From: a virus
IMG/VR virus record: IMGVR_UViG_3300000976_000137
Coordinates: 1-50,995 of that record
Length of the DNA stretch: 50,995 nucleotides
Strand: one strand, 5' to 3'
This document shows, piece by piece, positions 18,315 through 38,844 of the stretch (the first letter of the stretch is position 1; each line of letters starts with the position of its first letter). The notes beneath the pieces were generated by a model. The model did no database searches. It was not told where the DNA came from and saw nothing but the letters and a program-made list of their open reading frames with translations. Made by a program: the position numbers and the translations under genes.

Positions 18315-18335
18315 GAAAATTTGCATCAAAAAAAG

Positions 18336-18506: not shown

Positions 18507-19091
18507 ATGAAGAAAAAAAGAAGCACCAAACCGCTAAAATGGAAGGAAGCCAAAAAAGCATTACTATTTTTGGAATCGGAAGAAAAGTACCACTACCTTC
18601 TTATCATTGCCGTTGGTTTTTATACTGGCTATCGCATTGGCGATATGTTGGAACTCAAATATGAAGATTTTGAAGGCGATGCCCTAAACATCACCGAACG
18701 CAAAACTTCCAAGCAGCGCCCCGTTCCCGTAATTGGAGATTTACGGCGCATCGTTACCTTGTGCCAGGAGCAATTCAACCGCAAGCCAGAACATTACCTT
18801 TTTATCCGTACCCGTTTCTTTACCAATCAGCCCATTACCACAGCCGCAGCTATCACCCGTATTCGGAAAGCTTTGCAATTTGCAGGAGTGAAAGGCAAAC
18901 ATTTAACGGCTCATACCTTACGAAAGACCTTTGCCCTTCGTTATTATGAATTGGCACGAGAAACAGAGGGTGATTACCGTGCTTTGAATGAACTTTCCAA
19001 ACAATTGAATCACGCTAGTACGGAAGTGACTCGTCGCTATATCGGTCTAGAGGAACAAATCGTGCAAAATATCTTTGATAATTTTGCCTGA
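18507..19091 (+). CDS. short tyrosine recombinase (catalytic domain only)
   Basis: 194 aa. 'GYRIGDML' (Arg I), 'HTLRKTFA' (H-x-x-R) and 'TRRYIG' (catalytic Tyr). No N-terminal core-binding domain. Confidence 0.75.
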   Translation: MKKKRSTKPLKWKEAKKALLFLESEEKYHYLLIIAVGFYTGYRIGDMLELKYEDFEGDALNITERKTSKQRPVPVIGDLRRIVTLCQEQFNRKPEHYLFIRTRFFTNQPITTAAAITRIRKALQFAGVKGKHLTAHTLRKTFALRYYELARETEGDYRALNELSKQLNHASTEVTRRYIGLEEQIVQNIFDNFA

Positions 19092-19280
19092 CCCAAAAGG
19101 CTCATTTTGTGACACTATTAGCCCAAAAGTGTCTAATTGATACAAATTTAAGCAAAATTAGACGTTAATATATTGTTTAAACGTATTTTGCTTGAAATAT
19201 TCCTTGTCAGTTGTACAGAAGATTTTATTTACATTAATCAGCAATACGTACACGAGGTTATTTTTTACTGTATTTTGAAC

Positions 19281-19727
19281 TTAAGCTTGATGAACTTCAG
19301 AAATAGACGCTTCTTCATAATCTAGTACATCGTTCTCATACTCTTTTTTTACATAAGATTCTATTTTATCATAAGGAAGGCTACTTGGTATATCTACTGC
19401 AATTAACTGGTCTTTTCTACTGATTTCTGAATCACAACCAAGATTCTTTATAGCTTCATTTACTTTGTCAATATCATCTTCTTCAAAAACATAAATTCTT
19501 ATGGTACTATTACCTGATGGCTTAATGAGGTGATTTACCTCGTACATTCCATCAATTAGTTCCGCACTAACAATATCACCATAGGCATATTTTTTTACAT
19601 AAAAAGGAATATTATCTAATTGAAAACCGTCTTTATGTGGAGTTGCCCAACAACTCTCAACCATATATTTGTTTTCTTCTGTATTAAAAAATCTAAATAA
19701 TATCTTTATGTGTTTTGAATTCTTCAT
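19281..19727 (-). CDS. DUF4265-like immunity protein for the upstream RHS toxin
   Basis: 148 aa. 'GFQLDNIPFYVKKYAYGDIVSAE...PSGNSTIRIYVFE' matches the DUF4265 pattern as I recall it. Lies immediately downstream of the toxin tip. Confidence 0.7.
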   Translation of the reverse strand: MKNSKHIKILFRFFNTEENKYMVESCWATPHKDGFQLDNIPFYVKKYAYGDIVSAELIDGMYEVNHLIKPSGNSTIRIYVFEEDDIDKVNEAIKNLGCDSEISRKDQLIAVDIPSSLPYDKIESYVKKEYENDVLDYEEASISEVHQA

Positions 19728-19829
19728 TTTATTATCTTTAATATTGAACCCACCTAAATAATGCAGTTAGGTTAAAAATTAACATAATTCAAATTTCGTG
19801 CAATAATGTTGTTTATATTTTTTGAATTG

Positions 19830-22800
19830 CTAATTATTGTAATAATCTTCTGGTAGCTTATCGCTTTTTTTCCGATTACAGTCTCTGCAAAGAATCTGTC
19901 GGTTATCAGAAGTTGTATTCCCCCCATGTTTTTTAGGGTAAATATGGTCATATTGAGCTTCATTACCAGGTGGTTTAACACCTTTTTGTGATTTCTTAGC
20001 ATCAACTAATTGTACATCACAATCGGCACATCTAAATTCTCCATCATTGTTCTTTATATTTTCTTGCTTGGCTTCACTTTTCTGCTTCTTTGTAAAACTC
20101 TTTCCTTCTTTAGGGCCTCCTTTTGACCCTGTTTTCATATTTACAATTGCATTATTGCCAGTAAGATTATTAAAGGCAGTAGTCGCAACACCAGCACTTG
20201 CAGCCGCTCCTGTACCAAGTGCAACTGCTGCACCCGCCCCAACTGGTCCGGTAACAGGGGTTGTTAAACTTGAGCCAGTAGCTGCAACTGTTCCCAAAAT
20301 CGTTCCCGCAGTTCCAGCAACTAAAGAAAGGACATCCCCTGTTTGTTGCCCTATTGCAGCTGCTTGAGCATATTTGCCAAAATCATTGGGGTTTCCTCTA
20401 GTACCAGGGAAATTACCCGTTAAGTTAGAGCTTATAGAATTAGCTACACCTGCTACAAATACAGCACTATTAATTAACGCCTCCTTACAAACTTCACAAT
20501 CACCATTTGGGTCATTGAATAAGACGGGATTATTCATCCCAAATTTGTATGGAGTCCAACCTGTAAACAATCCTGCTTCGGGGTCTACTTGCAACCAGCG
20601 AGCTGTTGTTGGATTGTAAGTTCGATATTTTGCAAAGTCTAAACCAAATCCAAAATCGGCATTTCTCTCAAAACCATTGAACAAATAATCGTAAGTGGGA
20701 TTAACTCTTAATCCTGATCCACGCTGTCTTAATCCATAAGGATAGTAGGATGATGTTTCAGATATTTCAGTATTATCAATTGTTCCATCTGTATTTTTAT
20801 CTGAGAATAGAACACGCTGATTCTTTAAATGATCTTTGATCGCATATTCGTAATATGGGGAAGAATTACCAAAAAATAAACGTCCTACATCAAAATAAAG
20901 TGCCTCTAACGTATCATTACTATATTCAATATCGTCAAAATAGTCTTGAGTTAGCAGAATAGTATCTACTAACTGGTTAAGCATATTTTGTTGCTTACCT
21001 GTTGTCTGTTTTTGTAATTTTTTACCTTCTCCATCATATAACCAATCAATCTTACTCCCATTGGCAAAGCTTACTTGATAGGGCAAGTTATGATAATTGT
21101 ATGATATTTGGATGCCTTTATTGGGGTCAATTGTTTGATTACCGTTGTTATCATAATCGTAATCGGCACTACTGCGTTGTACAAAACCATCGGTTTCAAA
21201 TCCACCTTGAGGGCAATTAGCTATTTTGGCAGTAAAAATAGCTCCTGACTTGGCATGAAATCCTGGTTTTAGAACGATGCTATCCCCAGCTTGATAGGTA
21301 ATCGCAGCATTAGCATTGACGACATTATTAGCTTCTAGCATTTCCTCGACAGCATGTAGCTGCGTATTATCCAAAGGATTATCTACTAATTTACTGGTTG
21401 GGCAGGGGGCAGTATCTGCTATCGCCTTCAGTCGATTAGTACCAGTAACATAACTATAACTTAAATTGTCTATTTGTTGAGTCTGTAAATTAGAACTATT
21501 TCCGTATAAGCCCCTTCTGGTCAAACTGTTAATATTCCCTCTTAAATCATAGCTATAAGTTGTCCCATAAGCATTATTATGGAGGTTATAATTAGCAGCG
21601 GTGAGGCGGTTTAAGAAATCATATTGGTAGTCATAGATTTGTGACTGTCCGTCTTTGAATTCCCATGTTAGGCTAGCGATATTGCCCTCATATTGTGGCG
21701 TAATGCCTTGGTCATAGGCTATTTGCAAAGAAAACAGGTCATCTGCTGCCATCGTTTCATTAATACCTTTAAGGAAACGATTTTCTAAGTAAGTGTAGTT
21801 ACATTCCTGTAAAAAACCGTTCGTTGTACCGCTTAAAAACTCCTTTAATAGTAAATCCTTATGATCATAGGCTTTTCGGCATAAATGCTGAGATGTACCA
21901 TTCTGTAGGTTGTGGTGAGTATCAATAGGTCTGCCTTGATGGTCATAGGATTGGGTAATGGTATCTCTTTGGCTATTAAAGGCACTAATATGATAACGCC
22001 GTCTGGTTTTGACCACGTTATCCAAGTAGTCATAATTCATGAAACGTTGCAATAAGCCATTTCGATGATTATTCCCCGAATCAGTAATCATTCTGCCAAA
22101 ATCATCATAAAAATAGAAACGTTCTATGAAGGTATTGCTTACTTGATTGCCATTTAAAACGTAGTTGTTAAGCGCTGTTAATCGCCCGATGTCTATTGAT
22201 GGGTTGGTAAACCCTGTGAGAGAGTTGTTTGGTCTTAAACCATCATAGTAATTTTCCGTCCAAACCTCGTTAACAGTCGTTGGCGTTGTATTTAGTCCTG
22301 TTTTTGTAACCCTTCCATATACATCATATTGGGTTATCATCCATTTTCCGTCAGTCCGTAAATTGCCATCTTGAAAGGCGATAGGTATATTTCTTGGCTC
22401 ATAGACCAAGGTTGTTTTTTCCTTGTCGGGTATTTTGATTTCTAGCTTATTATCTTCCCCAGAGTAGAGGGTCGTAAAAATCAAGTTAGCATCCGTAGCA
22501 CTTGCCGCAGGAGGGATAATGATGGTTTCTCGCTCTTTTTTATCATAAATAGTGTAGGTACTGGTCTGACTACTACCCGACTGGTTCTGTTGTCTAAGTA
22601 AGATAGGTTTTCCTCGTTTATCAGATAGTATAGTGCTTCTATCGCCCGTCTGTGTACTACTTCCATCTGGCTCAATCGTAGTGATGGTATTGAGTTCTCC
22701 GATGGCGTAAGTAATAGAAGTGCCAGGAACAGTAATTGCCGTTTGATTACTCCCATACAACGTATGCGTGGTATACCAGTCAGGCGGTGTAACTGCTACG

Positions 22801-25800
22801 GGGCGATTAAGTGGAGAAACTTCATATTGCGTAACAGTAAAAGCAGTTCCATTAGGTACGGTTCTAAACGAACCGTTACTTAAAAGGCTTTCAAAAGGCT
22901 CATAAGCCATTGCTACCCTACTTTGATTATCATAACTGACGGCGGTAATAATATCTTTGGGGTCAGCCGCATCGGGTGAATGTTTGATTTGATTGGTCTG
23001 CAACAGCCGTCCCAATCCTCCTAAATACTGTCTAGTTTCGATGGCTTGCAGCGCACTTAGATTCAACCCATCAGGTTGAAAAGTGACTTTTTGATTAATG
23101 AAATTATGCGTATTTGTCCCATCTTGGTATTGGTAGCTGATGTCTGTAAGTACGTTGCCATCCCGCTCATTAATCTGGATTAACCGCATCAAGGGATCAA
23201 AGTCAAAATCTGTGTCCTGTGCATCTATATCAATGGTTTCACTTGCGATCCTTGTTCCCGTAAAATAGTTTGCCACCCATTGAAAATTCTCAAAAGTTCG
23301 AGTTTTAATCTGCTTATTGATGGCATCGTAGGTATAAAATTCTGTTTCCCATCCTTTACTTGTCGAATTGGCAGGTCTGCCTACTGCCATATTATAAGCC
23401 CCGTGATGTTCTAGCGTATCCCATCCACTATTTGGACCTGTTACTTGTAGATTGCCACCAGCATCCCAAGTCATTTCATAATCTTCAAAAAGATAAGGGT
23501 AAATCGGGTCTAAACCACTACCGCCTCGCAGTCCAAAATTATCAAAGAAATCACAGTTGAGCCGTTGCCCCTTTGTTTGCAAGGCTGTTCCATTTTCTTC
23601 TACTTTATGAATCGTTTCAATAGGGGTCGCAATTTGATTACGAGCTACCATTGAATCATAAACCGTCTGGGTAAAATCAAAGGGGTAACGATGTTCGGTG
23701 ATAAATTTTAAATCATCCGAATTGGTCATGCTTACACCAACAGGTGCTAAGTGACGGTTAAGATTGTCATATTCATACACCATCTGTGTACTCACCCCAT
23801 CCCGAAAACTGGTCACGACTGATTTTTGAAACTGATTAGGAGAGATATTTTGATAGGTGCGATGAAAATACCAAGTTTGCTGTCCACAAACAATGGGAGG
23901 AGCTGTCTTAATAATAAGATTCGGTGAATTAGTGCTAATAATCGTTCTAGGCGTTACTGCCGACTGATTCACCAGCGTCGCTTGATTAGCTTCTACCTTA
24001 AATGCACTTGTTCTATCCGACTTTCCTTTATACACATTGAGTTGTGCAGGTGGTCGAGGAAACTGATTAACAAAATTAAAAATGGGGTCAAAGCTACCAA
24101 AGAAGGTATAGGTATTATAGCCATTATCCGACTCACTATTGCCTAGTATCTCTCTAACGTTTTGGTATCCTAACGAAATTCCGTCATAGCCCCCTAGCGG
24201 AACGATGCTATTATCGGTAAAATAAGCGGCTTCAACCGCCCCCTCCACCAATCCACCTGCAGTAATAGATTGTCCATCAACAAAATAAGCATATCGGGGA
24301 ATTTGGTATAAAATTCCACTTGATTCATTCGGTAGATTCTCGTTTTTATACTCAAAAGTTTTGATAACATCAGGATTGAGATTCTGTCCATCCTTAGCCG
24401 TTATTTTTCGGATGCGGAGTCCACCAGCAGGACGAGTGGCAAAAAACTCATCTTGAATGGTAAAGAGGGCAAACCGAGCCTGTCCATTATTGCTACTGAC
24501 CTCAAAGATATAAGGTACATTGAGGCTTAACGCTCCCAAGTTTGTTAAAGGAACGTCATCTCTTATTTCAAATTGTTGGCTGCTATTGAGATTAAAACTA
24601 TAAAAGCCTCTTTGAATGGGGTTATTCGGGTCGGTGACTTCTAAGGCTCGAATATTTAAAGTGGGTAAGGGCAAATTACAATCAATGCTACCGTCCCCTG
24701 CATCATCTACTATTTTGGTCAAAACAGCGGTGAAATACGCTCGGTCTATTTCTCCTTGGGAAGTAAAAGTGTAAGGCGTGATAGTGGTTTCATCATGCGC
24801 TCCACAGCATTGTAATTCTAACGGATTGGGACAGCTTCTAATTTCTGGTACTAAGGTAGTTTCCTCTCCTTGAATTTGTCCGTAATAATCATTGAGTTCG
24901 TATTCAAATTCAACGCTTCCCCCCAATGGGTTATTGATTTTTGTTAAAATGCCATATTGGGTATGGGTTAAACTAGGATTCCGATTTGCTTGTCCTTCGA
25001 TTAAGATTCTCCCGTTGGGAAGGGTCAATCTGGTATCTTCGGGTAGGTTAATGGGTAAATTATTATTGGTGAATTGCCCATTGAAGAATCCCCATTCATC
25101 GGTTGCCTTATCTAGCCTTTGAGGCAAATAAGGTGACCCATCAGTATTCAGAGGTCCATCATATTCAAAACTGTAAGGAGGGATTTCAATATAAGTACCT
25201 GTGCAGGAAACTTCTTGTACTGATAAGAGCCGAAGTCGCTTCGATTCGGAGCGCTGATTGACGGGAAAAGCGGGGTCTTTGAAATAATCGTAGGCAAAGC
25301 GAAAGCGTTTACAGAATTTGGTGCCGCTACTAATCGAAAGGGAATCCAAACGGTAGGAAGTGCCATTGACATCTTCTCTAGCTGTGTTGGCAGCAAAAGT
25401 AATTGTTTCGGTAGGGCTTGTAATGGTGGCGAGGCGCAATCCTCTGGTTACTTGGGTGGTCGTAAAAAAATGATTGGCATCATAAGAAGAGCCCACACAG
25501 CTTTGACTTGCAGACCACCCACTATACCCCACACCGCCACAACCTGTATAATTAATCTGGCAAGAGGAAGGAGTTACGTAGCTGTAATTTTCTGTTTGAT
25601 AATCTAAGGTGATATTATCGATGCCATCATAAGACTGAATGCGCAGCAAGTACCAAGAAGAAATCCGCTCCATGTCTCCTTGATTAATGGTTCTTTCTTG
25701 GGCAACTCGATTATCGGTCGGGTCTTGGCCAAAAAAGTATTTGGTGCCATCTTTGTCGATAATGGTAAAACCTAAAAATGGTCCATTATTTTCGGTGGAT

Positions 25801-26348
25801 TCAACTAGCTTTAAATCCTGCTTAGGCACAAACTCAACCATACCAGGTCCATCTCCTGTAAAATAAAAGCGTCCAGAGGTGCCATTGGGAAGGGAAAAAC
25901 TAAAGAGATCTGGTTCTTCATCACGAGAATTGATAATCGCTTCAAGTTGATTGTCTTCAAGAAACTGTCCATTGCGATAATAGCCTAGGGCATCATCATC
26001 GGCACGATCGAGGATGGTACGAGTAATCATTCCCCCTGCACTTAGATCCCAATTCCCCGTCCACGAACTCAAAGTGGCCAGTTTGATACCTGCCGAGTGA
26101 TAGCTCAACGAAATGGGTAAACTGACTTTGCCGTCTGATACCGTATATAACGGAATAGTATTGTTTGAAATGCCTGTAAAATAAGAAACGGGTACATCCA
26201 CATATTTGCCAAAAGAAGTAGCAGAGGGCGTAGGCATGACTACATCTCCTACATGGCTATTGGTTGGTTGTGACCATCCATTTTGTGTATGAATTAGGAG
26301 GCTTAATCCTAAAAAAAGGAAACGATTTACAAGAGAGAGCTGATTCAT
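19830..26348 (-). CDS. RHS/YD-repeat polymorphic toxin with C-terminal HNH nuclease domain
   Basis: 2172 aa with the signal peptide 'FLFLGLSLLIHTQNGWSQ' and many YD-type repeats. The RHS core ends at 'RYTYNPTTARWLQVDPEAGL...NDPNGD' (about 20499..20513). A Gly/Ala-rich linker follows, then the HNH motif 'YDHIYPKKHGGNTTSDNRQILCRDCNRKKSD' (19860..19955). Confidence 0.9.
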   Translation of the reverse strand: MNQLSLVNRFLFLGLSLLIHTQNGWSQPTNSHVGDVVMPTPSATSFGKYVDVPVSYFTGISNNTIPLYTVSDGKVSLPISLSYHSAGIKLATLSSWTGNWDLSAGGMITRTILDRADDDALGYYRNGQFLEDNQLEAIINSRDEEPDLFSFSLPNGTSGRFYFTGDGPGMVEFVPKQDLKLVESTENNGPFLGFTIIDKDGTKYFFGQDPTDNRVAQERTINQGDMERISSWYLLRIQSYDGIDNITLDYQTENYSYVTPSSCQINYTGCGGVGYSGWSASQSCVGSSYDANHFFTTTQVTRGLRLATITSPTETITFAANTAREDVNGTSYRLDSLSISSGTKFCKRFRFAYDYFKDPAFPVNQRSESKRLRLLSVQEVSCTGTYIEIPPYSFEYDGPLNTDGSPYLPQRLDKATDEWGFFNGQFTNNNLPINLPEDTRLTLPNGRILIEGQANRNPSLTHTQYGILTKINNPLGGSVEFEYELNDYYGQIQGEETTLVPEIRSCPNPLELQCCGAHDETTITPYTFTSQGEIDRAYFTAVLTKIVDDAGDGSIDCNLPLPTLNIRALEVTDPNNPIQRGFYSFNLNSSQQFEIRDDVPLTNLGALSLNVPYIFEVSSNNGQARFALFTIQDEFFATRPAGGLRIRKITAKDGQNLNPDVIKTFEYKNENLPNESSGILYQIPRYAYFVDGQSITAGGLVEGAVEAAYFTDNSIVPLGGYDGISLGYQNVREILGNSESDNGYNTYTFFGSFDPIFNFVNQFPRPPAQLNVYKGKSDRTSAFKVEANQATLVNQSAVTPRTIISTNSPNLIIKTAPPIVCGQQTWYFHRTYQNISPNQFQKSVVTSFRDGVSTQMVYEYDNLNRHLAPVGVSMTNSDDLKFITEHRYPFDFTQTVYDSMVARNQIATPIETIHKVEENGTALQTKGQRLNCDFFDNFGLRGGSGLDPIYPYLFEDYEMTWDAGGNLQVTGPNSGWDTLEHHGAYNMAVGRPANSTSKGWETEFYTYDAINKQIKTRTFENFQWVANYFTGTRIASETIDIDAQDTDFDFDPLMRLIQINERDGNVLTDISYQYQDGTNTHNFINQKVTFQPDGLNLSALQAIETRQYLGGLGRLLQTNQIKHSPDAADPKDIITAVSYDNQSRVAMAYEPFESLLSNGSFRTVPNGTAFTVTQYEVSPLNRPVAVTPPDWYTTHTLYGSNQTAITVPGTSITYAIGELNTITTIEPDGSSTQTGDRSTILSDKRGKPILLRQQNQSGSSQTSTYTIYDKKERETIIIPPAASATDANLIFTTLYSGEDNKLEIKIPDKEKTTLVYEPRNIPIAFQDGNLRTDGKWMITQYDVYGRVTKTGLNTTPTTVNEVWTENYYDGLRPNNSLTGFTNPSIDIGRLTALNNYVLNGNQVSNTFIERFYFYDDFGRMITDSGNNHRNGLLQRFMNYDYLDNVVKTRRRYHISAFNSQRDTITQSYDHQGRPIDTHHNLQNGTSQHLCRKAYDHKDLLLKEFLSGTTNGFLQECNYTYLENRFLKGINETMAADDLFSLQIAYDQGITPQYEGNIASLTWEFKDGQSQIYDYQYDFLNRLTAANYNLHNNAYGTTYSYDLRGNINSLTRRGLYGNSSNLQTQQIDNLSYSYVTGTNRLKAIADTAPCPTSKLVDNPLDNTQLHAVEEMLEANNVVNANAAITYQAGDSIVLKPGFHAKSGAIFTAKIANCPQGGFETDGFVQRSSADYDYDNNGNQTIDPNKGIQISYNYHNLPYQVSFANGSKIDWLYDGEGKKLQKQTTGKQQNMLNQLVDTILLTQDYFDDIEYSNDTLEALYFDVGRLFFGNSSPYYEYAIKDHLKNQRVLFSDKNTDGTIDNTEISETSSYYPYGLRQRGSGLRVNPTYDYLFNGFERNADFGFGLDFAKYRTYNPTTARWLQVDPEAGLFTGWTPYKFGMNNPVLFNDPNGDCEVCKEALINSAVFVAGVANSISSNLTGNFPGTRGNPNDFGKYAQAAAIGQQTGDVLSLVAGTAGTILGTVAATGSSLTTPVTGPVGAGAAVALGTGAAASAGVATTAFNNLTGNNAIVNMKTGSKGGPKEGKSFTKKQKSEAKQENIKNNDGEFRCADCDVQLVDAKKSQKGVKPPGNEAQYDHIYPKKHGGNTTSDNRQILCRDCNRKKSDKLPEDYYNN

Positions 26349-26382
26349 AGCTTCTTTGTTTTAATGGTTATTTTGATGTTCA

Positions 26383-27720
26383 TTATTTTGATAACGTAAA
26401 ACGTTGGGTCTGTTTTTCAGATAGATTAATGGCGGTGATAAAGTAGATGCCCGCAGGGTAATGACTGCAATCTACCCGTAGCAAAGTTCCATTTCCATTT
26501 ACCCTAAAATTCTGCAAAAGCTGACCGTTTGCATTAAACAGTTGAAAAGATTGCCACTCACTATCCGAAGGATAGCTAATGCTAATCTGATTGGTCGCAG
26601 GATTGGGGCTAATCTGAAAGGATGTGGTTGTTTTTTGAGTAGTCACTATCGGTTGATTTCTAGCAAGAGCTTCGGTTTCTAATAAAGATTGACCACATAA
26701 ACTTTTGGCATCTTTTAAGCTACCTCTAGGACCACCTTCACTTAGCATGGCGGTAATGCGGAGCATTTGACCGAGGGTAAAACTATACATGAAATTATCG
26801 TCGGTAGCATCCATATAATTCATGCTATATTCTACTCGTCCGTCACATAGACTGATATGGCGGTATTCGGCATTAGCGCCATAGTTGGGCGCATTATGCA
26901 CAGGCGTATCAAAAATTCGGTCGTCAGCGCATGGTTTACTATCATTCCAAAGTTCCAGTAGTCCGAGATAAGAGCCTGTAAGATGGACGAGTGACTTCAT
27001 TTGCGCATATTGACGAAACTTGTCCCCCGAAGGTTCAACTAGTTGTCGATTAATGACAATGCCATCCGATTTTTTAGGACTCCAAGGCATCTGGGCATAA
27101 CCCGCTTCGGTATCGGGTAAATCGACTATCCAAATATTGAGATAATTTTCGGGTTGATAGGCGGTAAAATCAAAGCCTTCGACTGCATTATTTCCCAAAG
27201 CAGTTGTCACTAAATCATCAACTGACCATTCTTCAATGCCGACTGGTATATAATTATAGCCCAGAGAACCATTCTCCATCAAATCTACATCCGCTAAGCA
27301 AAATTGAATGCTACCACTAGGCGGCATTAGGCTTTCAAGGTCCAATATATCATGAGCGGGATGTTCCCATTCCGTTTTATATAGAAAAGCATCATTGAGT
27401 GCGGTTAGTTGGGCTTCAATAGCAGCTGGACTAATCGGATTATCCTTATAGACATGGTGAAAGATAATGGGAATGGTGAAGCTTGGTAACTCCCCGTTTA
27501 GTTGGTAGCTTTTTACATAACGTTCGATAGCTTGTCTGCGCTCAACGACTGTTTCATCAGCCAAGCGAAATTGTTTATCAACTGCTTGGGTGGAAAATTG
27601 GCGATAGATTCTTTGGGAAAAACTCGTTTGAGGATTCAAGGAGCAGCTAATAAACAGGAAAAGTACGAACCTTAATGGTAGATTGTGGTAGTTAAAACAG
27701 AGAGAGCTAGTTAGCTTCAT
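26383..27720 (-). CDS. M43 (pappalysin/ulilysin)-like protein with degenerate active site and T9SS C-terminal sorting domain
   Basis: 445 aa with a signal peptide. 'VHLTGSYLGLLELWND..CADDRIFDTP' (26947..26988) aligns to the recalled M43 motif 'HExxHxxGxxH' but keeps only the first His. The C-terminus 'ISPNPATNQISI...AGIYFITAIN...RFTLSK' looks like a T9SS type-A sorting domain. Confidence 0.65.
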   Translation of the reverse strand: MKLTSSLCFNYHNLPLRFVLFLFISCSLNPQTSFSQRIYRQFSTQAVDKQFRLADETVVERRQAIERYVKSYQLNGELPSFTIPIIFHHVYKDNPISPAAIEAQLTALNDAFLYKTEWEHPAHDILDLESLMPPSGSIQFCLADVDLMENGSLGYNYIPVGIEEWSVDDLVTTALGNNAVEGFDFTAYQPENYLNIWIVDLPDTEAGYAQMPWSPKKSDGIVINRQLVEPSGDKFRQYAQMKSLVHLTGSYLGLLELWNDSKPCADDRIFDTPVHNAPNYGANAEYRHISLCDGRVEYSMNYMDATDDNFMYSFTLGQMLRITAMLSEGGPRGSLKDAKSLCGQSLLETEALARNQPIVTTQKTTTSFQISPNPATNQISISYPSDSEWQSFQLFNANGQLLQNFRVNGNGTLLRVDCSHYPAGIYFITAINLSEKQTQRFTLSK

Positions 27721-27925
27721 TGGTATGGATTTTTTGTTCTACTAATGAATCATCCGTTTAAGATGATTTTGGTTTTTATATATTGTGTAACAATAATACT
27801 TCCAAGGTATGTAAATGATTTATATATACAAAAATATTTGTGTGTTTTTTGTTGAAAGAATTTTAAATTATCCTAAAAGAAGTAGAAGGGCGACACAGCG
27901 TCCTCCCTTCTAAAATAGCTATTGA

Positions 27926-28303
27926 TTAGTGTTCACTAGGCAATAGTAAAACATTACCTTCCATCCAAAGCGTGATGCTATATAATGGGAAAGTGGTAAA
28001 ATTAAGGGTAAAAGTTTCAATAATTTTCTTGTTACCATTCTCAATGGTGATGATACAACCTTCACCTCGTCTTACCAGTCGCCACACTTGAAAATCAAGC
28101 GCTTTGATTTTTGAATTAATTTGATGGCTAAATATAAATTCCAATAGCCAATAGCATTCTGCATTTTTGGCTAAGAATCTCACTCCATCGGTGTAACGGA
28201 AGGCTTTGAACAGCGGATGGAAATAATACTGTGTCGTGCCTGAAAACTGCTTGAGGGCAGCTAATAACTCGCCTTTACTCATGTATGTAAAAGTTTTGGA
28301 CAT
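27926..28303 (-). CDS. DUF6876-like protein (paralog of 446..832)
   Basis: 125 aa. Aligns along its whole length with the 446..832 product ('HPLFKAFRYTDGVRFLAKNAECYWLLEFI', 'LLLPSEH'). Confidence 0.65.
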   Translation of the reverse strand: MSKTFTYMSKGELLAALKQFSGTTQYYFHPLFKAFRYTDGVRFLAKNAECYWLLEFIFSHQINSKIKALDFQVWRLVRRGEGCIITIENGNKKIIETFTLNFTTFPLYSITLWMEGNVLLLPSEH

Positions 28304-28450
28304 GGTTAGACCATGTGTTAAAAAATGAAGTTAAGCGTAGTTATAGCAAAGGATTATTGCAGTATTATTACAGCGACCGTAATTTGAATCGAATAGGTAA
28401 AAGTTGTATCTTTAGGGCAGAAACTAAGTAGAGAGAGTTTCACTCATAGT

Positions 28451-28491
28451 GCTTCATTACCTGTTTTACAGCTAATGAAGCCTTTTTATTT
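28451..28491 (+). terminator. orphan plus-strand intrinsic terminator (possible 3' end of a small RNA)
   Basis: The 9-bp stem 'gcttcatta'/'taatgaagc' has a 13-nt loop and is followed by 'ctttttattt'. No plus-strand ORF lies upstream. Confidence 0.45.
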
Positions 28492-28681
28492 CTAGGAGTT
28501 AGGTTGATAAAAGAGAAGTTTGTATTTAATAAAAAACAATGTATTTTTGAATAGCCTTTAATGATTCTCTCTATGTAACGGGGTCGTTTCTCTCTACTTG
28601 GTAAATAGACTCGACCTCGATTTTATTGATTTACTAAAAGCACCATTCAATATAAATATTGGTTAGCTTGGTTAAAAAGAA

Positions 28682-28714
28682 GAAGCCCTAACGCTTGACC
28701 AGCATTAGGGCTTC
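28682..28714 (-). terminator. terminator of the 28746..29078 gene
   Basis: The 10-bp stem 'gaagccctaa'/'ttagggcttc' is followed on the minus strand by 'ttctttttaacc'. Confidence 0.6.
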
Positions 28715-28745
28715 ATTCCGTAATGGATATACGATAATTTTAGGC

Positions 28746-29078
28746 TTATCCAATCAGTTTAATGAGGGCAACAGTCAATCCCACACCACCAAGTACAGTA
28801 GCCATCATGGTTTTTTGTAGACTGATGATAGTGTCTTTTACATTGATACTGATATTGGAAATATCTTCTTTAAGTCCGTCTCGGACGCTATCAATTCTTT
28901 CATTAAGTCTTTTTTCTGATTGACGTAAATCTTCTTTTGTAGCAACGCCATTGAGGGTAATTTCTTGAATCGCTTCAATGAAACCTTCTGCTTCTTGTTC
29001 TGAATAGCCTTTATCTTGAAGTAATTTTACTACTTTATATGTGTCCAGATTCAGGGTTGCAGATTCTGTTGAGAACAT
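28746..29078 (-). CDS. DUF1640-like coiled-coil protein with C-terminal TM anchor
   Basis: 110 aa. 'LDTYKVVKLLQDKGYSEQEAEGFIEAIQE...VATKEDL' plus the hydrophobic tail 'VLGGVGLTVALIKLIG'. Confidence 0.5.
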   Translation of the reverse strand: MFSTESATLNLDTYKVVKLLQDKGYSEQEAEGFIEAIQEITLNGVATKEDLRQSEKRLNERIDSVRDGLKEDISNISINVKDTIISLQKTMMATVLGGVGLTVALIKLIG

Positions 29079-29243
29079 TTTATGCCTTTCTTAGTGTATA
29101 CACTATAACATAGGCTAAATGACTTGGCAAATAAGAGTAAACTTCTGATTAGAAAAACCTTTAATTATAGACTCAAAGCTTATCTGCTGACTATAACTTT
29201 CCATAACATAAATTATCAAACTGGATTATGATGGTGCTAGTAT

Positions 29244-29483
29244 TTACACAACACGCCAAACTCTGGCACCTTCTCCTTCTGGTCGGCAAACAAATTTCTT
29301 AGGCTTATAGCTGTACAACCGTGTCATAACAGCAAGCTTTCCTTTTTTATCTCTGGGAGGTTCTTCTAGAAATACACTATCGCCTACATCCATATTATCT
29401 GCTAAATGTTTCCAAAGCCCTGTTCTGGTTTTAGTGTTTTCAGGTATAGATACACCTTTTTCTATTTTGATATTTTCAAACAT
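29244..29483 (-). CDS. hypothetical protein
   Basis: 79-aa ORF. No family recognised. Confidence 0.45.
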   Translation of the reverse strand: MFENIKIEKGVSIPENTKTRTGLWKHLADNMDVGDSVFLEEPPRDKKGKLAVMTRLYSYKPKKFVCRPEGEGARVWRVV

Positions 29484-29647
29484 TAGTTGTAATCCTTACA
29501 GTTATTGATGACTTCAACACTAAATCCTATTGCTTTAATAGTCAATTAGTTCTTACAATGTTAAGGTTTCTAATAATGTTAAGGAATTGTGGTAGTATAA
29601 AATATTATCAATTCGCTAAAGGTTCAATCTTGAATATTTATTGTAGG

Positions 29648-30766
29648 TTAATTAATTGAATTAGAAATAGAAAATCTTTTTTTGTAAAATTCATTGTATT
29701 CATGTTTTAATCTACCTAATGGAATTGCTGGATGTATATTTATTTCATTAGCAAAACTGATAATTGTTTCACTTGAAAACTCTTCAGTTTTCTCAATAAA
29801 TTTTTTCCATTTTTTCTTGGGAATTAAATGATTTTCGGCAAAAATATTCGCTTCTTTTTCCTTGGAAGCCTGATTTCCTTTATTTCCAGCTATATCATCT
29901 ATGAAAGGAATTTCATTATTTTTATTTGGTTCTAAATGTCTATAAATATGTCCTAATTCATGAAAAAGCGTAAATGCTAGGTTATCTAAACGCTTGTGCC
30001 TGAGAGTAAGACCAATAGCAGGGTTATCCTTACTCCAAAAAGCAATACCATCTACTGGCACTTGGTCGGCTCTCGGTTCTATAATTAGTTTGATACCATA
30101 TTTGGGTAAAATTTTCTCCAGATTATCAACTATTGACTCGCCTAGAAATACACTTTTCAATTTCTCAATCAATTCTGATTCTGATTCTCGATTAAATGCT
30201 TCGATTTTTTTTAATTTGCTAGCCTTGTATTCCACATACTTAACCCAGCCTAGTAAGTTAACTGGATTTACTTTTAAAACAGGAGATTTTTTAAAATTCT
30301 TATAGGTAGCACTTTCCAATTCCATTTTTATTTCATTGGCACTTTTTACTCCATATATCGTAAAAAGGAAATCTATATCTTTTTCTAGAATATTGGATAA
30401 TTTCTTTAGTTTTTTGAAATAGTTTAAAGCTACGTATTGTTTTAAATCAACCCATTTTCTAATTATAGAAACTTTTTTTTGCAGGTTTTTGTCAAGATTT
30501 GCTTTAGCCAGTTCATAATTAGACTGGAGATTAATCCAGTAATCTTTATCTATACCTAAAGCAGCTTCTAGGATAATAGCTAATTCAGTCGAAATACCTC
30601 TTTTTCCCTTTATAATCTCATTGAGTTGAGAATGTGCCATACCAATGGTAATAGCGAATTCTCTTTGCTTTAAATCTTTCTTATCTAAAATGTCTTTCAA
30701 ATATTCTCCAGGGGGAATTGCTATTGCAGGAGTTAATTTATTGATAACTTTTCCTTGTGCATCCAT
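29648..30766 (-). CDS. HigA-type HTH antitoxin fused to an ImmA/IrrE-family metallopeptidase domain
   Basis: 372 aa. N-terminus 'IPPGEYLKDILDKKDLKQREFAITIGMAHSQLNEIIKGKRGIS' (HigA-like HTH). C-terminal region 'TLFHELGHIYRH' (HExxH, COG2856-like). Confidence 0.8.
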   Translation of the reverse strand: MDAQGKVINKLTPAIAIPPGEYLKDILDKKDLKQREFAITIGMAHSQLNEIIKGKRGISTELAIILEAALGIDKDYWINLQSNYELAKANLDKNLQKKVSIIRKWVDLKQYVALNYFKKLKKLSNILEKDIDFLFTIYGVKSANEIKMELESATYKNFKKSPVLKVNPVNLLGWVKYVEYKASKLKKIEAFNRESESELIEKLKSVFLGESIVDNLEKILPKYGIKLIIEPRADQVPVDGIAFWSKDNPAIGLTLRHKRLDNLAFTLFHELGHIYRHLEPNKNNEIPFIDDIAGNKGNQASKEKEANIFAENHLIPKKKWKKFIEKTEEFSSETIISFANEINIHPAIPLGRLKHEYNEFYKKRFSISNSIN

Positions 30767-30778
30767 AATTTACCTTCT

Positions 30779-31057
30779 TTATTCAACATTAACAATAAGT
30801 AATTGATTACTAGATACTTGCTTAAAGTAGAGATAAAGCTCCGCATTTAATTGTATTGAGTGAAGGTTATGTTCATTATTAGGAGGGAAATAATCTATAT
30901 ATAGTTTTGATAGTTCAGAAATCTTTGGTACAGCCCGTAGCATTTCTATTGTTTTTATCAATTGCCTTCTTACAAAAAATAAGTTCTTGTTATGGTTATT
31001 AGGCTCTTCATCAGAATATAGTGATTCTAATGCAGAATCTTGAAAAAAGATTTGCAT
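30779..31057 (-). CDS. HigB/RelE-like toxin (plasmid maintenance killer type), tentative
   Basis: 92 aa, 12 nt upstream of the HigA-like gene. Length and order (toxin first) fit higBA. Sequence similarity to PF05015-type toxins is weak by eye. Confidence 0.5.
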   Translation of the reverse strand: MQIFFQDSALESLYSDEEPNNHNKNLFFVRRQLIKTIEMLRAVPKISELSKLYIDYFPPNNEHNLHSIQLNAELYLYFKQVSSNQLLIVNVE

Positions 31058-31416
31058 ATAGTATAAATAAATATTATACTTGTAAAATAATTTTTTAATT
31101 GATAACTAAGTAACGAACTAATTCACAAATTTGTTACTATTTTTTAAAATCAAAAAAAATAAAATTAACTTTTTTGTTAAGTAATTACAAATTAACGCTT
31201 TTAAAATTACTTTTTCAAATAAAACTTAAATTATTTTCAAGCACTATTAATATAATAGGAAAAAAAGAAGAGGATAGAGCGCCAACTCTAACCTCAGGGT
31301 TCTTAGTTCAATAAGAAATATAAATATATAAAAAATATTTCTTCCCTGAAAGTAAAATTTACTTTTTACGCCTCTTCTCCGTTTCCTATATTTTTTCATA
31401 CTTAAACTTTATAATC

Positions 31417-31755
31417 ATGGGTTATCCTAGATTTGAAATCGACACGGACTCGAAAGGGGAATTTCGTTTTAACTTATTTGCTGTAAACGCTAAAAACATT
31501 TTGCGCTCCAGCGAAGGTTACACCACTAAGCAAAATTGTATAAAAGCAATTGAATCTGTAAAAGCTAATGCCCCTAATGACAATCGGTACAAGCGAGGTA
31601 CTTCCAGTAATGGGCAATATTACTTTGTACTGAATGCTCGTAATGGCGAAGCATTAGGGATTAGCGAAATGTATACTACTGTTGCCAATCGTGAAAATGG
31701 TATTGCGGCAGTAAAACGAGATGCACCTGTCGTAACGATTGTCGATTTGACTTAA
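31417..31755 (+). CDS. YegP-family (tandem DUF1508) protein
   Basis: 112 aa with two repeats: 'FRFNLFAVNAKNILRSSEGYTTKQNCIKAIESVK' and 'YYFVLNARNGEALGISEMYTTVANRENGIAAVK'. Confidence 0.8.
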   Translation: MGYPRFEIDTDSKGEFRFNLFAVNAKNILRSSEGYTTKQNCIKAIESVKANAPNDNRYKRGTSSNGQYYFVLNARNGEALGISEMYTTVANRENGIAAVKRDAPVVTIVDLT

Positions 31756-31929
31756 ATTTTTCTACTGCTTTCTGCTTTTTCTGAAGTAGAAAGCAATCTT
31801 TTTTAGGCAATATTTTGGGTATGACTTATCCAAAGTAAACGGCATTGCTATGCCTAAAAATCAAATAGCGACTTACCCACTAGGTCGCTTTCACTCTATT
31901 TTTTAATCTTTTTTAAAATTTTATTTTTT

Positions 31930-33282
31930 ATGAACTTAGCTAAAATTATTAGTAAGACTTTATTCATTAGTTTTTTGTTTTGTGTTAGTTGTGATATTCC
32001 TCCAGTTGATTTATGTTCAAACGGTATTCTAGACCTAGAAAATGGTGAAATAGGAATTGACTGTGGAGGTATAAACTGTGAAGCTTGCCGACAAGTTGAC
32101 ACCTTCAAGGAAATGGTAATCATAGATACCGCAGTTGTCAATCATCCAGAAGCAAAAATTGGACGATTGTCTTTTGGTCATTTGATAAGAAATATGACTA
32201 CCGATGCTGTAACGAAGGAAGATTTAATCCTAGGCTTTTTGCAATCTTGGGAGCGAGAGCAAACCATCAATAATTTTACAGTTGCACCTAGACCTCGTAT
32301 TAATGAAAGGATAATCAAGCCTTGGATGGAAGCGGACGGTCAGGCTGGTAGTCCGATTGACGAATGGAAAATTAACTTAGATAATGCGCCTTTTAAATTA
32401 CTTGCAGTAGTTAATAGATTAGACTTGCTAAAAGTCAAGGAAGGTCGTGTTACTAATTCTGGTGAGGGACGATTTGTTTACTGTGCTGTTGATTCTAATA
32501 ATCGACCTTTGCCTTTTACGGTGATTTTCGAGTATCAATTACCGATTCTAGATACTACGCAGATTTTTCCTTTGGTCTCTAAGTGGCATAACTTGGGAGC
32601 GCATGAGACTTTTGATTCTAGTTATGTTGAAGCACTTATTGCAGTAACAGAGAACTTTGTAGGAAAAAATGTAATGCCAACTAAGCCAAACGGCAATGCC
32701 TTGAACCAGATACGGACGAATGAGGTAGCGCTTAGTGGTCCCTGGGAATTAAGAGAGTTCAACTTAGACCGAACTGAAGGGATATTCAAAGAAGTGACTA
32801 GGAAAATGACACCCGATTTTTCATTAAACGGTAGTCAGCTATTAACGAAGTTTATACAAGAAAACGAAGAAGCTATTAGGACGGGTCAATTTACAATACC
32901 CTTAGTTTATGACGGGCAACCTTTTTTGGGTGGATTTTGTCCAACCAATTCATCTTCTTTTAAATGGAATGCTCCTGGTGTAAGTAGAGAGTTAATCGAC
33001 AAGTTTTCTATAAAAACATGCAATGGTTGCCACGGAGGGGATACAGGAACACCTTTTACACATATAGGACCACCATCTACTTTGCATGAACCTGCGAGTG
33101 TATCAACATTTCTAATGGGAGAAGAAATGAGTAATAGACTTCGCCTTATGCATGAGCATTTTTTGAAAATTCAAGAATTTAATATAGCTAATAAGCCTTC
33201 TAGCAGAACAGTAGCTATGCCATTAGAAAAACAAATTTCTATCGAAGAGTTGATTAGGCGACGGGCAAATAATGTTCATTAG
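31930..33282 (+). CDS. secreted/lipoprotein-like Cys-rich protein with a single CXXCH motif
   Basis: 450 aa with the signal/lipobox-like 'FISFLFCVSC'. Contains the Cys knot 'CSNGILDLENGEIGIDCGGINCEAC' and 'CNGCHGGDTG' near the C-terminus. Family unknown. Confidence 0.6.
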   Translation: MNLAKIISKTLFISFLFCVSCDIPPVDLCSNGILDLENGEIGIDCGGINCEACRQVDTFKEMVIIDTAVVNHPEAKIGRLSFGHLIRNMTTDAVTKEDLILGFLQSWEREQTINNFTVAPRPRINERIIKPWMEADGQAGSPIDEWKINLDNAPFKLLAVVNRLDLLKVKEGRVTNSGEGRFVYCAVDSNNRPLPFTVIFEYQLPILDTTQIFPLVSKWHNLGAHETFDSSYVEALIAVTENFVGKNVMPTKPNGNALNQIRTNEVALSGPWELREFNLDRTEGIFKEVTRKMTPDFSLNGSQLLTKFIQENEEAIRTGQFTIPLVYDGQPFLGGFCPTNSSSFKWNAPGVSRELIDKFSIKTCNGCHGGDTGTPFTHIGPPSTLHEPASVSTFLMGEEMSNRLRLMHEHFLKIQEFNIANKPSSRTVAMPLEKQISIEELIRRRANNVH

Positions 33283-33326
33283 TAGCATACGTTGAAATTT
33301 AGTTTTACTAGGAACTTAGTATTAGA

Positions 33327-33370
33327 TAACTTTGTTCATATTGTACTATAACATAATGTGAACAAAGTTA
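33327..33370 (+). promoter_or_regulatory. imperfect hairpin of about 19 bp between the two genes (attenuator, terminator or operator)
   Basis: 'taactttgttcatattgt' pairs with 'acataatgtgaacaaagtta'. Confidence 0.4.
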
Positions 33371-33398
33371 CTTTAACCTTTAAAAAATCAAAATTAAT

Positions 33399-35222
33399 AT
33401 GGATATTCAACCATTAAAAGTCGATGACTTTATTCAAGAGGTGAAGCCTATTTTAGATACTCTAAGAAAAAATGTAGCACAAAACAATACAGAAATTCGA
33501 GTCTCAGATATATTCGATAAAGCAGGTAATCAGTATATTAATCTGGTTCAAGAAGGAGGTGGGCTATTAGGAATTGCTTTAGTTGGATTCACCTATGTTT
33601 TGGAAGAAATGGGCATTCGTTTCTTGAGTTTGGGAGGTACTTCTGCAGGTGCAATTAATACTATTTTTTTAGCTGATGTCGATAAACCTGCAAATAAAAA
33701 AAGTCTTGCAATTTTAAAGAAAATTGCAGGTTTTGATTTTATGCAATTTGTAGATGGAGGCAGACGTGCTAAATGGCTGGTTAATGCAATGGCTAAGGAA
33801 AAAACAGCACTAACCTACTTGTTAGCGGTAATGAATGCACCTAGATTGTTTCAGAAAAAAGGGATTAACCCAGGGACTTTTTTTGAAGACTGGTTAGAAA
33901 AAGAATTAAAGCACAAAAGGTTAGATGCCTTAGACAAGAACATAAAAGATATTCCTGACTTAATCTTAAAAGATGACTACGGGAAGGAAAGAAAGTTAGA
34001 CCCTAAAAAGTTGGCTATTAAATTAGCTATTGTAGCTGCGGATATTACTACGCAAACAAAGGTAGAGTTTCCCAAAATGGCTGAGTTGTATTTAAGAAAT
34101 CCTAAAGTCGAAAGCCCTGCCGCTTTTGTTAGAGCCTCGATGTCAATTCCTGTATTTTTTGAGCCCAAACAATTTAATCTTTCCTCTTTTACTGGTGGGA
34201 AAAAAGATTTTTATCAAGAGAGATGGAAAGCTTTAGCTGATTTTAGGTCTTCTCAACTTCCCGAAAGTGTACAGATGGTAGATGGTGGCGTGATGTCTAA
34301 CTTTCCTATTGATTTATTTCATACAGAAGACACCATTCCTTTGCGACCAACTATTGGTGTCAAATTGGGGATAGATCGGTATAATTTTAAAAAACATGGT
34401 GGCTTATTTAAATTTGCGGGGAATATTTTTGACGGAGTACGGAATTTGAGAGACCATGAGTTTTTAAAAACGAATCAGGAATATCAAGAATTAGTTGAAC
34501 ATATCAATATAGATGATATTAATTGGTTGGATTTTAACCTATCCAACGAAAATCAACTAAGATTATTTAGAGAAGGGGCGGTTGCTGCACAAAATTTTCT
34601 TAACCGTTTTAATTGGACGAATTATAAGAAGCGTTTAAAATCAGAGCTAATTCAGCGCATCAAACCACTTACTTGGGAGTTGTCTAATATTGATGATTTA
34701 GAAGGGGTATTAGAGGTTTTCAAAATAGAAAGAGGCACCCCACTTTTTGAACGGATACAGGAAATAAAAAAACGACCTGAGCCTTATAAAGTGCTTTGGG
34801 TAGATAACTCATTTACCTATACCTTGCCTATGGCTATTTTAGATAAGCTCAATATTTCTTGTATTACTGCTAATAGCTCCGAAGAAGCCTTTGATATTAT
34901 TGATGAACACGATGATATTGACTTAATTATCTCTGATTTAACCAGAGACAATAGCAATATAGGAGGTATTACACTTTGCCAGCGGCTGGCTTTAGATCCT
35001 AAGGCTAAAAATATCTCCGTATTAATTTACGTCCATAGTCAATCAAGTTTAAAAGAAAGATATTTTAAACATTTAAAGGAAACTAATGATTCTATAATCA
35101 GGTCTATCCGTTCTCCTGAAGAAGTAGAATTACCCAAAAATATAATTAATAGTATTGGTAGAAATACTGTTAGTCATAAAGAGTTTATCATGGAGGTTGT
35201 AGAAAATATTGATAAAAGCTAA
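33399..35222 (+). CDS. patatin-like phospholipase with C-terminal receiver(REC)-like domain
   Basis: 607 aa. Oxyanion 'QEGGGLLG', nucleophile 'GTSAG' and catalytic Asp 'VDGGVMSNFP'. The C-terminal 'KVLWVDNSF...DIDLIISDLTRDNSNIGGITLCQRL...ISVLIYVHS' looks CheY-like but lacks the usual acidic pair. Confidence 0.8.
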   Translation: MDIQPLKVDDFIQEVKPILDTLRKNVAQNNTEIRVSDIFDKAGNQYINLVQEGGGLLGIALVGFTYVLEEMGIRFLSLGGTSAGAINTIFLADVDKPANKKSLAILKKIAGFDFMQFVDGGRRAKWLVNAMAKEKTALTYLLAVMNAPRLFQKKGINPGTFFEDWLEKELKHKRLDALDKNIKDIPDLILKDDYGKERKLDPKKLAIKLAIVAADITTQTKVEFPKMAELYLRNPKVESPAAFVRASMSIPVFFEPKQFNLSSFTGGKKDFYQERWKALADFRSSQLPESVQMVDGGVMSNFPIDLFHTEDTIPLRPTIGVKLGIDRYNFKKHGGLFKFAGNIFDGVRNLRDHEFLKTNQEYQELVEHINIDDINWLDFNLSNENQLRLFREGAVAAQNFLNRFNWTNYKKRLKSELIQRIKPLTWELSNIDDLEGVLEVFKIERGTPLFERIQEIKKRPEPYKVLWVDNSFTYTLPMAILDKLNISCITANSSEEAFDIIDEHDDIDLIISDLTRDNSNIGGITLCQRLALDPKAKNISVLIYVHSQSSLKERYFKHLKETNDSIIRSIRSPEEVELPKNIINSIGRNTVSHKEFIMEVVENIDKS

Positions 35223-35286
35223 TTATCATTTGAGTGCGCTACAGTTTAGTGGGTTTTAAATATGTTCAAACATTTAGTTCTCCTGA

Positions 35287-35534: not shown

Positions 35535-35756
35535 CTAGCATTTATATATTTACATGATGTTAAATTTTATTCCAAGTCATTTATCATATAGAGTGGAACG
35601 ATATGAGTCTATGATATAAAGATTAAGTAATTCTTTCTAAGGTTGTTATTTTTGTAAAGAGAGTAAGATTGCTTATGTGAGGTTCTTTCTAATGGTAGAT
35701 GTTATGATTTTTAATTAACTAAGAATTTTTTATTCCTAATAGAAATGGGGGAATGA

Positions 35757-38838: not shown

Positions 38839-38844
38839 CATTTT

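Follow-up and report, generated by a model that had tools for sequence, protein, structure and literature searches.

The window analyzed here is the whole 50,995-nt stretch of the virus record IMGVR_UViG_3300000976_000137 (positions 1 to 50,995). Its minus strand carries a gene for a 445-aa M43-like protein (26383..27720), followed after a 34-nt spacer by a gene for a 2172-aa RHS polymorphic toxin (19830..26348) and then by a gene for a 148-aa DUF4265 protein (19281..19727). An original prediction, made from the letters of the sequence alone, had pictured the M43-like protein as a catalytically dead peptidase that undergoes type IX secretion system (T9SS) sorting and assists the neighboring toxin. 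We addressed this proposal by family profile searches, structure prediction, and a synteny scan of related genomes. As far as can be read from the sequence, the three genes constitute a cassette in the order pseudo-peptidase, RHS toxin, and candidate immunity gene.

The open reading frame (ORF) of the M43-like gene scored above the cut-offs of PF05572, PF18962, and TIGR04183, and its layout was supported by an AlphaFold2 (AF2) model and by Foldseek. A putative Sec signal peptide (residues 1-35; 27616..27720, minus strand), recognized by eye, would be cleaved between SFS and Q to leave an N-terminal Gln; the homologues have a hydrophobic N-terminus ending in AQ in the family consensus, and the predicted local distance difference test score (pLDDT) of the model was low over residues 1-30. 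Lipoprotein status, considered for the FISC at residues 23-26, was ruled out because its Cys is not kept in the family consensus. The signal peptide is followed by pro-segment-like N-terminal helices and an M43 catalytic-type domain (residues 36-335; 26716..27615, minus strand), as delimited by phmmer and Foldseek. In the Pfam scan, Peptidase_M43 (PF05572) matched residues 187-326 with 31.2 bits against a cut-off of 23, and in phmmer searches against the PDB, residues 57-335 aligned to proulilysin (8cd8, E=3e-24), with mirolysin also matched (E=8e-19). The AF2 model, built from 44 homologues (mean pLDDT 88, predicted template modeling score 0.76), showed a metzincin fold with a Met-turn and matched ulilysin and mirolysin with Foldseek template modeling (TM) scores of 0.79-0.83. 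The best structural matches were the zymogen forms, proulilysin and promirolysin (TM 0.81-0.83); because these aligned over more columns than the mature enzymes (~320 vs ~280), the pro-segment is still present. The Met-turn is retained as NYMD (26809..26820, minus strand), aligned to ulilysin NYMDY, and the columns of M303 and D304 are invariant.

The zinc site, in contrast to that of ulilysin, is degenerate. According to the original prediction, the stretch at 26947..26988 (minus strand) has lost the catalytic Glu and keeps a single zinc-binding His out of three, and alignment to ulilysin HEIGHWLNLYHIW bore this out: the helix VHLTGSYLGLLELW (residues 245-258) replaces HExxHxxGxxH, and the residue-level phmmer alignment pairs HLTGSYLGLLE with ulilysin HEIGHWLNLYH. 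Of the zinc ligands, the first His remains, the second is Ser, and the third is Glu; Leu stands in for the catalytic Glu. The flanking C.DD...DTP, which had likewise been reported as retained, corresponds to C264, D266/D267, and D271-T272-P273, and these residues, together with M303, are invariant or nearly so in the family.

The loss is shared by the whole clade. The dead motif H-L-x-G-[SNT]-Y-L-[GN]-L-x-[EDPS]-L-W was found in 43 of the 44 first homologues, down to ~25% identity, and the sole exception was the most distant of them, P0044, which reads HEIGHFFGLRH. Further relatives were taken from the best 150 matches (all full-length, E<=1e-117) of a profile search against 1.84 billion representative proteins at 50% identity; 131 of the 135 new representatives among these 150 carried the dead motif, and none of the 135 carried the active one. 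Across the family, 16 positions are invariant and ~36 more are nearly invariant, and the clade has a conserved motif of its own, DTPxHNAPN, where ulilysin has DTPNQADPN. A rebuilt metal site is unlikely since the former third zinc-ligand position varies across the clade (E, D, P, S, or A), and no intact metal site was found elsewhere in the M43-like protein, the clade keeping only one of the three zinc-binding His and no catalytic Glu. Because the dead motif is a conserved signature of the clade, the gene must be under purifying selection, not a pseudogene in decay. The M43-like protein is thus best described as a folded and selected pseudo-enzyme, a non-peptidase homologue of family M43 (pappalysin/ulilysin/mirolysin) and not an M43 peptidase. 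Public records label some clade members “M43 family zinc metalloprotease” or “zinc-dependent metalloprotease”; judged by the failure of the defining catalytic motif, annotation as a metalloprotease is inappropriate for the dead clade. Among the other relatives, P0204 (1027 aa) contains two M43 domains in tandem, FN3-like repeats, and a T9SS C-terminal domain (CTD). Its two motifs, HLVGHWLNLQH and HMVGHWLGLYH, keep all three His and have lost the catalytic Glu, and P0204 may be an intermediate between the active enzymes and the dead clade.

The C-terminus of the pseudo-peptidase forms a T9SS type-A sorting domain (residues 370-445; 26386..26613, minus strand), in agreement with what had been suspected from its appearance. 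Both CTD models were passed: Por_Secre_tail (PF18962) matched residues 370-441 with 39.8 bits against a cut-off of 27 in the Pfam scan, and TIGR04183 scored 37.1 bits against a cut-off of 23 in the NCBIfam scan. AF2 predicted seven strands between residues 369 and 443, arranged as a beta-sandwich, and Foldseek matched this domain to the CTD of mirolase (8qb1) and to the cargo CTDs in the translocon complexes 8glk_D (NucA CTD, TM 0.85) and 8gl8_D. Most of the listed homologues carry the CTD. PorP/SprF genes, along with other CTD cargo genes, occur on the contigs of relatives, consistent with a T9SS host. After cleavage, type-A CTD cargo becomes anchored at the surface via A-LPS (PMC8545088).

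The second gene of the cassette encodes, according to Pfam and NCBIfam matches, an RHS polymorphic toxin with a signal peptide, an SpvB-like N-terminus, DUF6443, an RHS shell, and an HNH tip. The signal peptide, as read from the protein (residues 1-26; 26271..26348, minus strand), has a predicted cleavage between WS and QP. Q27 and P28 are invariant in a 16-sequence alignment, and all cassette RHS proteins have a hydrophobic leader followed by (A/S)QP, so the end of the leader agrees with a cut by signal peptidase I just before a Gln, the common situation in Bacteroidota (the “Q-rule”). The most conserved N-terminal segment, QPxNNxxxDVxMPxPxAAxLGKY... (residues 27-120; 25989..26270, minus strand), has a conservation of 0.61-0.67, equal to that of the RHS core, and some RHS homologues matched SpvB (PF03534). 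DUF6443 occupies residues 1093-1189 (22782..23072, minus strand; PF20041, 56.3 bits), and the RHS repeat-associated core (residues 1868-1949; 20502..20747, minus strand; TIGR03696, 39 bits) ends in a DPNGD cleavage-type motif. This boundary, ...NNPVLFNDPNGD (NNP....DPxG type), aligns over 25 cassettes. Conservation of the RHS protein stays at ~0.6 up to about residue 1950 and then collapses to 0.12-0.21, which delimits a variable toxin tip (residues after 1950; 19833..20501, minus strand) with an HNH endonuclease domain in the window (residues 2129-2164; 19857..19964, minus strand; PF01844, 34.2 bits). The tips of other cassettes carry HNH, M23, TseH-like, DUF5675, and M91-like or reprolysin-like metallopeptidase domains. 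This variability of the tips, which include periplasm-acting M23 and TseH-like domains, marks the cassette RHS proteins as antibacterial polymorphic toxins.

None of the cassette RHS proteins carries a CTD, their C-terminus being the exchangeable toxin. The Pfam and NCBIfam scans gave no match to a TANFOR domain (at E<=1) or to PAAR in the RHS protein, and no type VI secretion system (T6SS) families were found among the scanned ORFs flanking the cassette, whose matches were to plasmid and other unrelated families. Within the RHS shell of the window lies a GCX_COOH/3-coathanger stack domain (NF045639, 63 bits; residues 1669-1713; 21210..21344), and this insertion, of 61 residues, occurs, among the 25 aligned cassettes, only in the window and in L058, a contig labeled as a Flavobacteriaceae plasmid. 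The DUF4265 gene (minus strand; PF14085, 90.3 bits) is a candidate immunity gene because it comes directly behind the toxin gene and is low in G+C (29.8%, compared with 40.4% in the RHS gene), both of which fit toxin-immunity modules; in a Runella relative, the equivalent position is occupied by an annotated Imm9. It is followed by a truncated tyrosine-integrase ORF (194 aa; 18507..19091), which, together with the low G+C content, suggests module exchange at the toxin end of the cassette.

To follow the gene pairing, we performed a synteny scan with one genome per species, which yielded 79 loci in 69 assemblies, nearly all from Saprospiraceae, Lewinellaceae, Haliscomenobacter, Aureispira, and unclassified Chitinophagales or Bacteroidota metagenome-assembled genomes (MAGs). 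Downstream sequence of 1.5 kb or more was available at 70 loci; at 63 of them, an RHS homologue lay directly downstream on the same strand, and the start of an RHS gene was also seen in four loci with shorter downstream sequence. These homologues align to the RHS protein of the window from about residue 1-50 to about residue 1950. In the 55 cassettes with a placeable start codon, the spacer between the two genes had a median of 42 nt (range -17 to 266), and some gene pairs overlap. Public gene calls agree; for example, a gap of 52 nt separates a homologue with 33% identity from a downstream 2144-aa RHS/DUF6443 protein whose tip is a Peptidase_M23 domain. In the window, the spacer runs over 34 nt from the stop codon to the RHS ATG (26349..26382, minus strand), as originally described, and the absence of an intervening hairpin held in substance: no terminator-like site was found within the spacer, and the region showed only a weak, AU-rich fold (minimum free energy -5.9 kcal/mol, z -1.1). 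The M43-like and RHS genes are thus likely to be cotranscribed.

Order, strand, and the ~42-nt gap are kept in ~90% of loci while the flanking genes differ, and most copies lie on long chromosomal contigs with differing neighbors. Nine assemblies contain two or three diverged cassettes per genome. Pairwise distances of the M43-like proteins correlate with those of the RHS proteins (r=0.70-0.74, Mantel p<0.0005); for comparison, the correlation between two segments taken from one RHS protein is 0.84. Among M43 relatives outside this arrangement, L075 is an active 733-aa M43 protein (HEVGHWLNLRH) without an RHS neighbor, the active and CTD-bearing P0044 likewise has none, and neither does P0048, a distant M43 relative whose motif was not checked. 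The occurrence of the pair in 63 of 70 independent loci is far beyond chance, and conservation of the pairing in relatives, on which the original prediction depended, was borne out together with codivergence of the two proteins. On this comparative evidence, it is strongly supported that the pseudo-peptidase and the RHS toxin are functionally linked.

Most of the nonconforming loci have an RHS gene or fragment a few genes upstream. A sub-clade with the motif HLMGSYLNL[HY]ELW has a conserved gene for a ~490-aa type-B (CHU_C) CTD protein preceding the M43-like gene (7145..8623 in L041, 8524..9963 in L061, and 8404..9885 in L039). In L041 and L061, both CTD genes are preceded by the RHS gene and, downstream of it, a small ORF that is a candidate immunity gene, which gives the order RHS, immunity gene, type-B CTD protein, and M43-like gene; one RHS gene is here accompanied by two different T9SS cargo genes. 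At another locus (L007/L023; 11405..17729 of Saprospiraceae contig JADKBS010000005.1), the RHS gene has fallen into several ORFs, a DDE transposase comes after it, and a second M43-like gene with its own downstream gene is found 8 kb further, a layout that shows decay and duplication of the cassette in one genome.

The contexts of RHS relatives outside the clade were taken from three matches of a word-index search with the RHS N-terminal profile (fragments <=525 aa listed) and from six annotated plasmids. The Empedobacter stercoris plasmid pLPY02 (L091) carries an RHS gene of the same family, and only 3 nt upstream of this gene is one for a repeat protein with a type-A CTD at its end. This partner (5457..6931) is split into a 402-aa repeat protein and a 90-aa type-A CTD ORF, which overlap in different frames and are probably one gene broken by a frameshift. 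That the Empedobacter partner might be a diverged M43 protein was ruled out (hhalign probability 0.2% against the family profile). Because this partner is unrelated to M43 and yet bears a CTD and adjoins an RHS gene, the CTD rather than the M43 fold is the shared feature, and this independent case supports regarding the CTD as the essential part. On Cytophagia plasmids (L092-L095, from Pontibacter, Chondrinema, and Hymenobacter), the RHS protein is encoded by two consecutive genes, an “RHS repeat” protein of ~1100-1290 aa and then a “DUF6443” protein, with the break just before DUF6443; no CTD partner was found upstream of the split RHS on these plasmids. A tblastn search of PLSDB with the M43-like protein found no cassette and only distant, presumably active M43 genes (27-31% identity).

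The window itself looks like a complete circular mobilizable plasmid of ~50.9 kb that carries the toxin cassette: its ends (1..50995) share an exact 49-bp direct overlap, and it encodes a Rep3-type initiator (42808..44217), a TrwC relaxase-helicase (2104..4839), and a coupling protein of the type IV secretion system (6790..8253). Directly upstream of the cassette lies a DUF6876 gene (27926..28303); a hairpin after it is not claimed as a terminator, its fold being weak (z -1.3). A Bacteroidetes-type -7 box, TATTTTTG (27829..27836), 109 nt upstream of the ATG, was given no weight since the window has 74 such matches compared with 69 in shuffled sequence, and a sigma-70 scan of the window found 28 sites against 29 expected, with a model that is uninformative for this phylum. 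Elsewhere in the window, an HTH_3 and Peptidase_M78 protein (ImmA/IrrE-type, with HELGH intact) is preceded by a small 92-aa ORF (29648..30766 and 30779..31057), a layout that resembles a toxin-antitoxin or regulatory pair.

Taking the two cassette proteins together, we proposed, with moderate confidence, that the pseudo-peptidase is a dedicated accessory protein exported by the T9SS, which would give the RHS toxin an export or anchoring signal in trans. The RHS protein would reach the periplasm by its Sec signal peptide, and it cannot bear a T9SS C-terminal signal of its own because its C-terminus is occupied by the exchangeable toxin. The pseudo-peptidase would bind a conserved part of the RHS protein and then lend it the T9SS signal in trans; once the translocon had been crossed and the CTD processed, the RHS cocoon would be held at the surface for delivery to neighboring bacteria. 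Loss of catalysis may have been favored by selection, since a protease that stayed active while attached to its partner would do harm. In its strongest form, which we advance more tentatively, the pseudo-enzyme would carry the CTD-less ~240 kDa RHS cocoon through SprA and tether it at the surface, with lineage-specific carriers, namely the M43 pseudo-peptidase in Saprospiria and the repeat protein in Weeksellaceae.

Several points weigh against this proposal. That the two proteins bind each other, that RHS export depends on the T9SS, and that the toxin is anchored at the surface are steps that we infer from the homology, the active-site loss and its conservation, the presence of the CTD, the synteny, the codivergence, and the polymorphism of the toxin tips. 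A folded ~240 kDa RHS cocoon would have to pass the SprA translocon as a passenger, and if the pro-segment stays in the cleft, as the AF2 model may indicate, the former substrate cleft would not be free for the RHS protein. The plasmid represented by the window carries no T9SS genes itself. In addition, RHS relatives at ~30% identity from Chitinophagaceae, a Flavobacteriales MAG, and one 6.7-Mb genome had neither an M43-like nor a CTD gene beside them, and the same was true of the RHS genes of Hymenobacter, Pontibacter, Chondrinema, and Runella plasmids. Since such relatives lack one, an M43-like or CTD partner is not a general need of the RHS family, and the M43-like partner appears to be specific to one clade.

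Other roles for the pseudo-peptidase would account for part of the same evidence. It might be only a surface tether or target recognizer, exported by its own T9SS signal while the RHS protein exits via vesicles, lysis, or another exporter and then docks, or it might bind a receptor on the target. Such a role, which we consider rather unlikely, fits the conserved synteny equally well and agrees with the normal surface anchoring of type-A CTD cargo (PMC8545088), and the RHS relatives without a CTD partner mean that another export route must exist for them. However, the cassette encodes no alternative exporter, and the variability of the M43-like domain does not exceed that of the RHS shell (mean distance 0.60 vs 0.62-0.69), whereas the receptor-binding modules of competition toxins usually diversify. 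Somewhat less probable again is a periplasmic chaperone or safety catch, which would stabilize, cap, or mature the RHS protein, or an enzyme of new function with a non-peptidase site (H246, H275, D266/D267/D271, and N276), the CTD then serving disposal or the timing of removal. The clade-gained motif DTPxHNAPN speaks for this, as do the conserved N-terminal YRxYxTQ segment and the zymogen-like fold, which suggest a permanently latent state, and dedicated chaperones exist for T6SS Rhs effectors (EagR/DUF1795). A reshaped metal site in the former place is nevertheless unlikely, the third zinc-ligand position being unconserved, and a chaperone would have no evident need of a secretion signal, yet most listed homologues carry the CTD.

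That the adjacency reflects coincidence or comobility, an independent T9SS-secreted factor merely traveling with RHS cassettes on mobile DNA, is improbable and is largely refuted by the synteny. The window is a putative mobilizable plasmid, and another copy lies on the plasmid-labeled contig L058; against this, copies are mostly chromosomal, order, strand, and gap are kept in ~90% of loci across 69 assemblies with differing flanks, and the codivergence is nearly as tight as within one protein. Furthermore, the two M43 relatives confirmed as active, and the distant P0048 with its unchecked motif, have no RHS neighbor. Most improbable of all is that the protein still works as a metallopeptidase and processes the RHS toxin. 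It does retain the fold, the first His, the Met-turn, and Cys and Asp positions of the calcium or disulfide type, and some public records name relatives “M43 family zinc metalloprotease”; but those names are automatic, Leu takes the place of the general-base Glu in essentially every member, and two of the three zinc ligands have gone without any conserved residue to make up for them. RHS proteins, moreover, self-process.

How Sec-dependent, CTD-less polymorphic toxins are exported in Bacteroidota is a question raised in 2020 (TANFOR) and 2021 (Apibacter), with no mechanism in the literature searched. As a test case for it, the cassette is concrete, widespread, and simple in its genetics: at least 69 species-level genomes have a small CTD-bearing gene fixed before one RHS gene. 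If the pseudo-peptidase is indeed a carrier or anchor, the T9SS could move passengers without a signal of their own and would be connected with killing between bacteria, and an adaptor would have been made out of a protease scaffold. If the CTD acts in trans through SprA, Bacteroidota would have a T9SS-based route of contact-dependent toxin delivery. The practical gain is a better annotation of the members of the dead clade that are now named metalloproteases.

In its architecture, the pseudo-peptidase is closest, among characterized proteins, to mirolysin of Tannerella forsythia, one of the T9SS-secreted M43B metallopeptidases, which has the same layout of signal peptide, pro-segment, M43 domain, and T9SS CTD; mirolysin, too, bears this sorting domain. 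The fold, including the pro-segment and the Met-turn, is common to mirolysin and ulilysin. Unlike these enzymes, the protein has HLxG[SNT]xxxxx[EDPS], no catalytic base, and an incomplete zinc site, and compared with the M43 relatives checked outside the dead clade, only the dead-clade gene is fixed beside an RHS gene. T6SS Rhs proteins use VgrG, PAAR, and EagR, and TcB-TcC toxins use TcA, all of them separately encoded partners for export or delivery. The cassette is analogous in its RHS cocoon, its exchangeable tip, and its separate conserved partner; TcB has an SpvB-like N-terminus like the RHS homologues here, and the gene split on the Cytophagia plasmids resembles that of TcB and TcC. Unlike those systems, no PAAR, VgrG, or TcA homologues were found here, and the partner is a 445-aa protease-derived T9SS cargo. 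Type-B CTD cargo is, as described in PMC9143113, encoded beside a cognate PorP/SprF-like protein that sets its secretion or anchorage. There, the partner is an outer-membrane component serving CTD-bearing cargo, whereas here a CTD protein would serve a CTD-less passenger.

The nearest parallels come from two studies of toxin neighborhoods. In Apibacter, most rhs genes, which have SpvB/TcdB-type N-termini, adjoin genes with T9SS type-A sorting domains, and a link to the T9SS was proposed (Steele and Moran 2021, PMC8125069). The cassette shares the SpvB/TcdB-type N-termini, the lack of PAAR, and the neighboring CTD gene, and the plasmid of Empedobacter (Weeksellaceae), with its 3-nt gap, shows an Apibacter-like arrangement; the Apibacter study leaves the other domain of the partner undescribed, whereas the partner in Saprospiria is an M43 pseudo-peptidase. 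TANFOR toxins have a Sec signal and no CTD, their neighborhoods are enriched in CTD-bearing T9SS substrates, once immediately upstream, and they were hypothesized to be T9SS substrates (Jana, Salomon, and Bosis 2020, PMC7073777). Their scaffold is the TANFOR domain instead of an RHS shell, and their neighbors are SprB-repeat proteins found by statistical enrichment, in contrast to a pseudo-peptidase in a fixed two-gene unit. In the literature searched, we found no paper describing DUF6443 and none reporting an M43-like pseudo-peptidase as an RHS partner or any experimental test of one. The original claim that such an arrangement had not been described thus stands for the M43 pseudo-peptidase and has to be narrowed otherwise. 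Taken together, the broad idea has partial precedent in Apibacter (2021) and in the TANFOR toxins (2020), and the part that is new, judged by the literature searched, is the partner itself, an M43 pseudo-peptidase.

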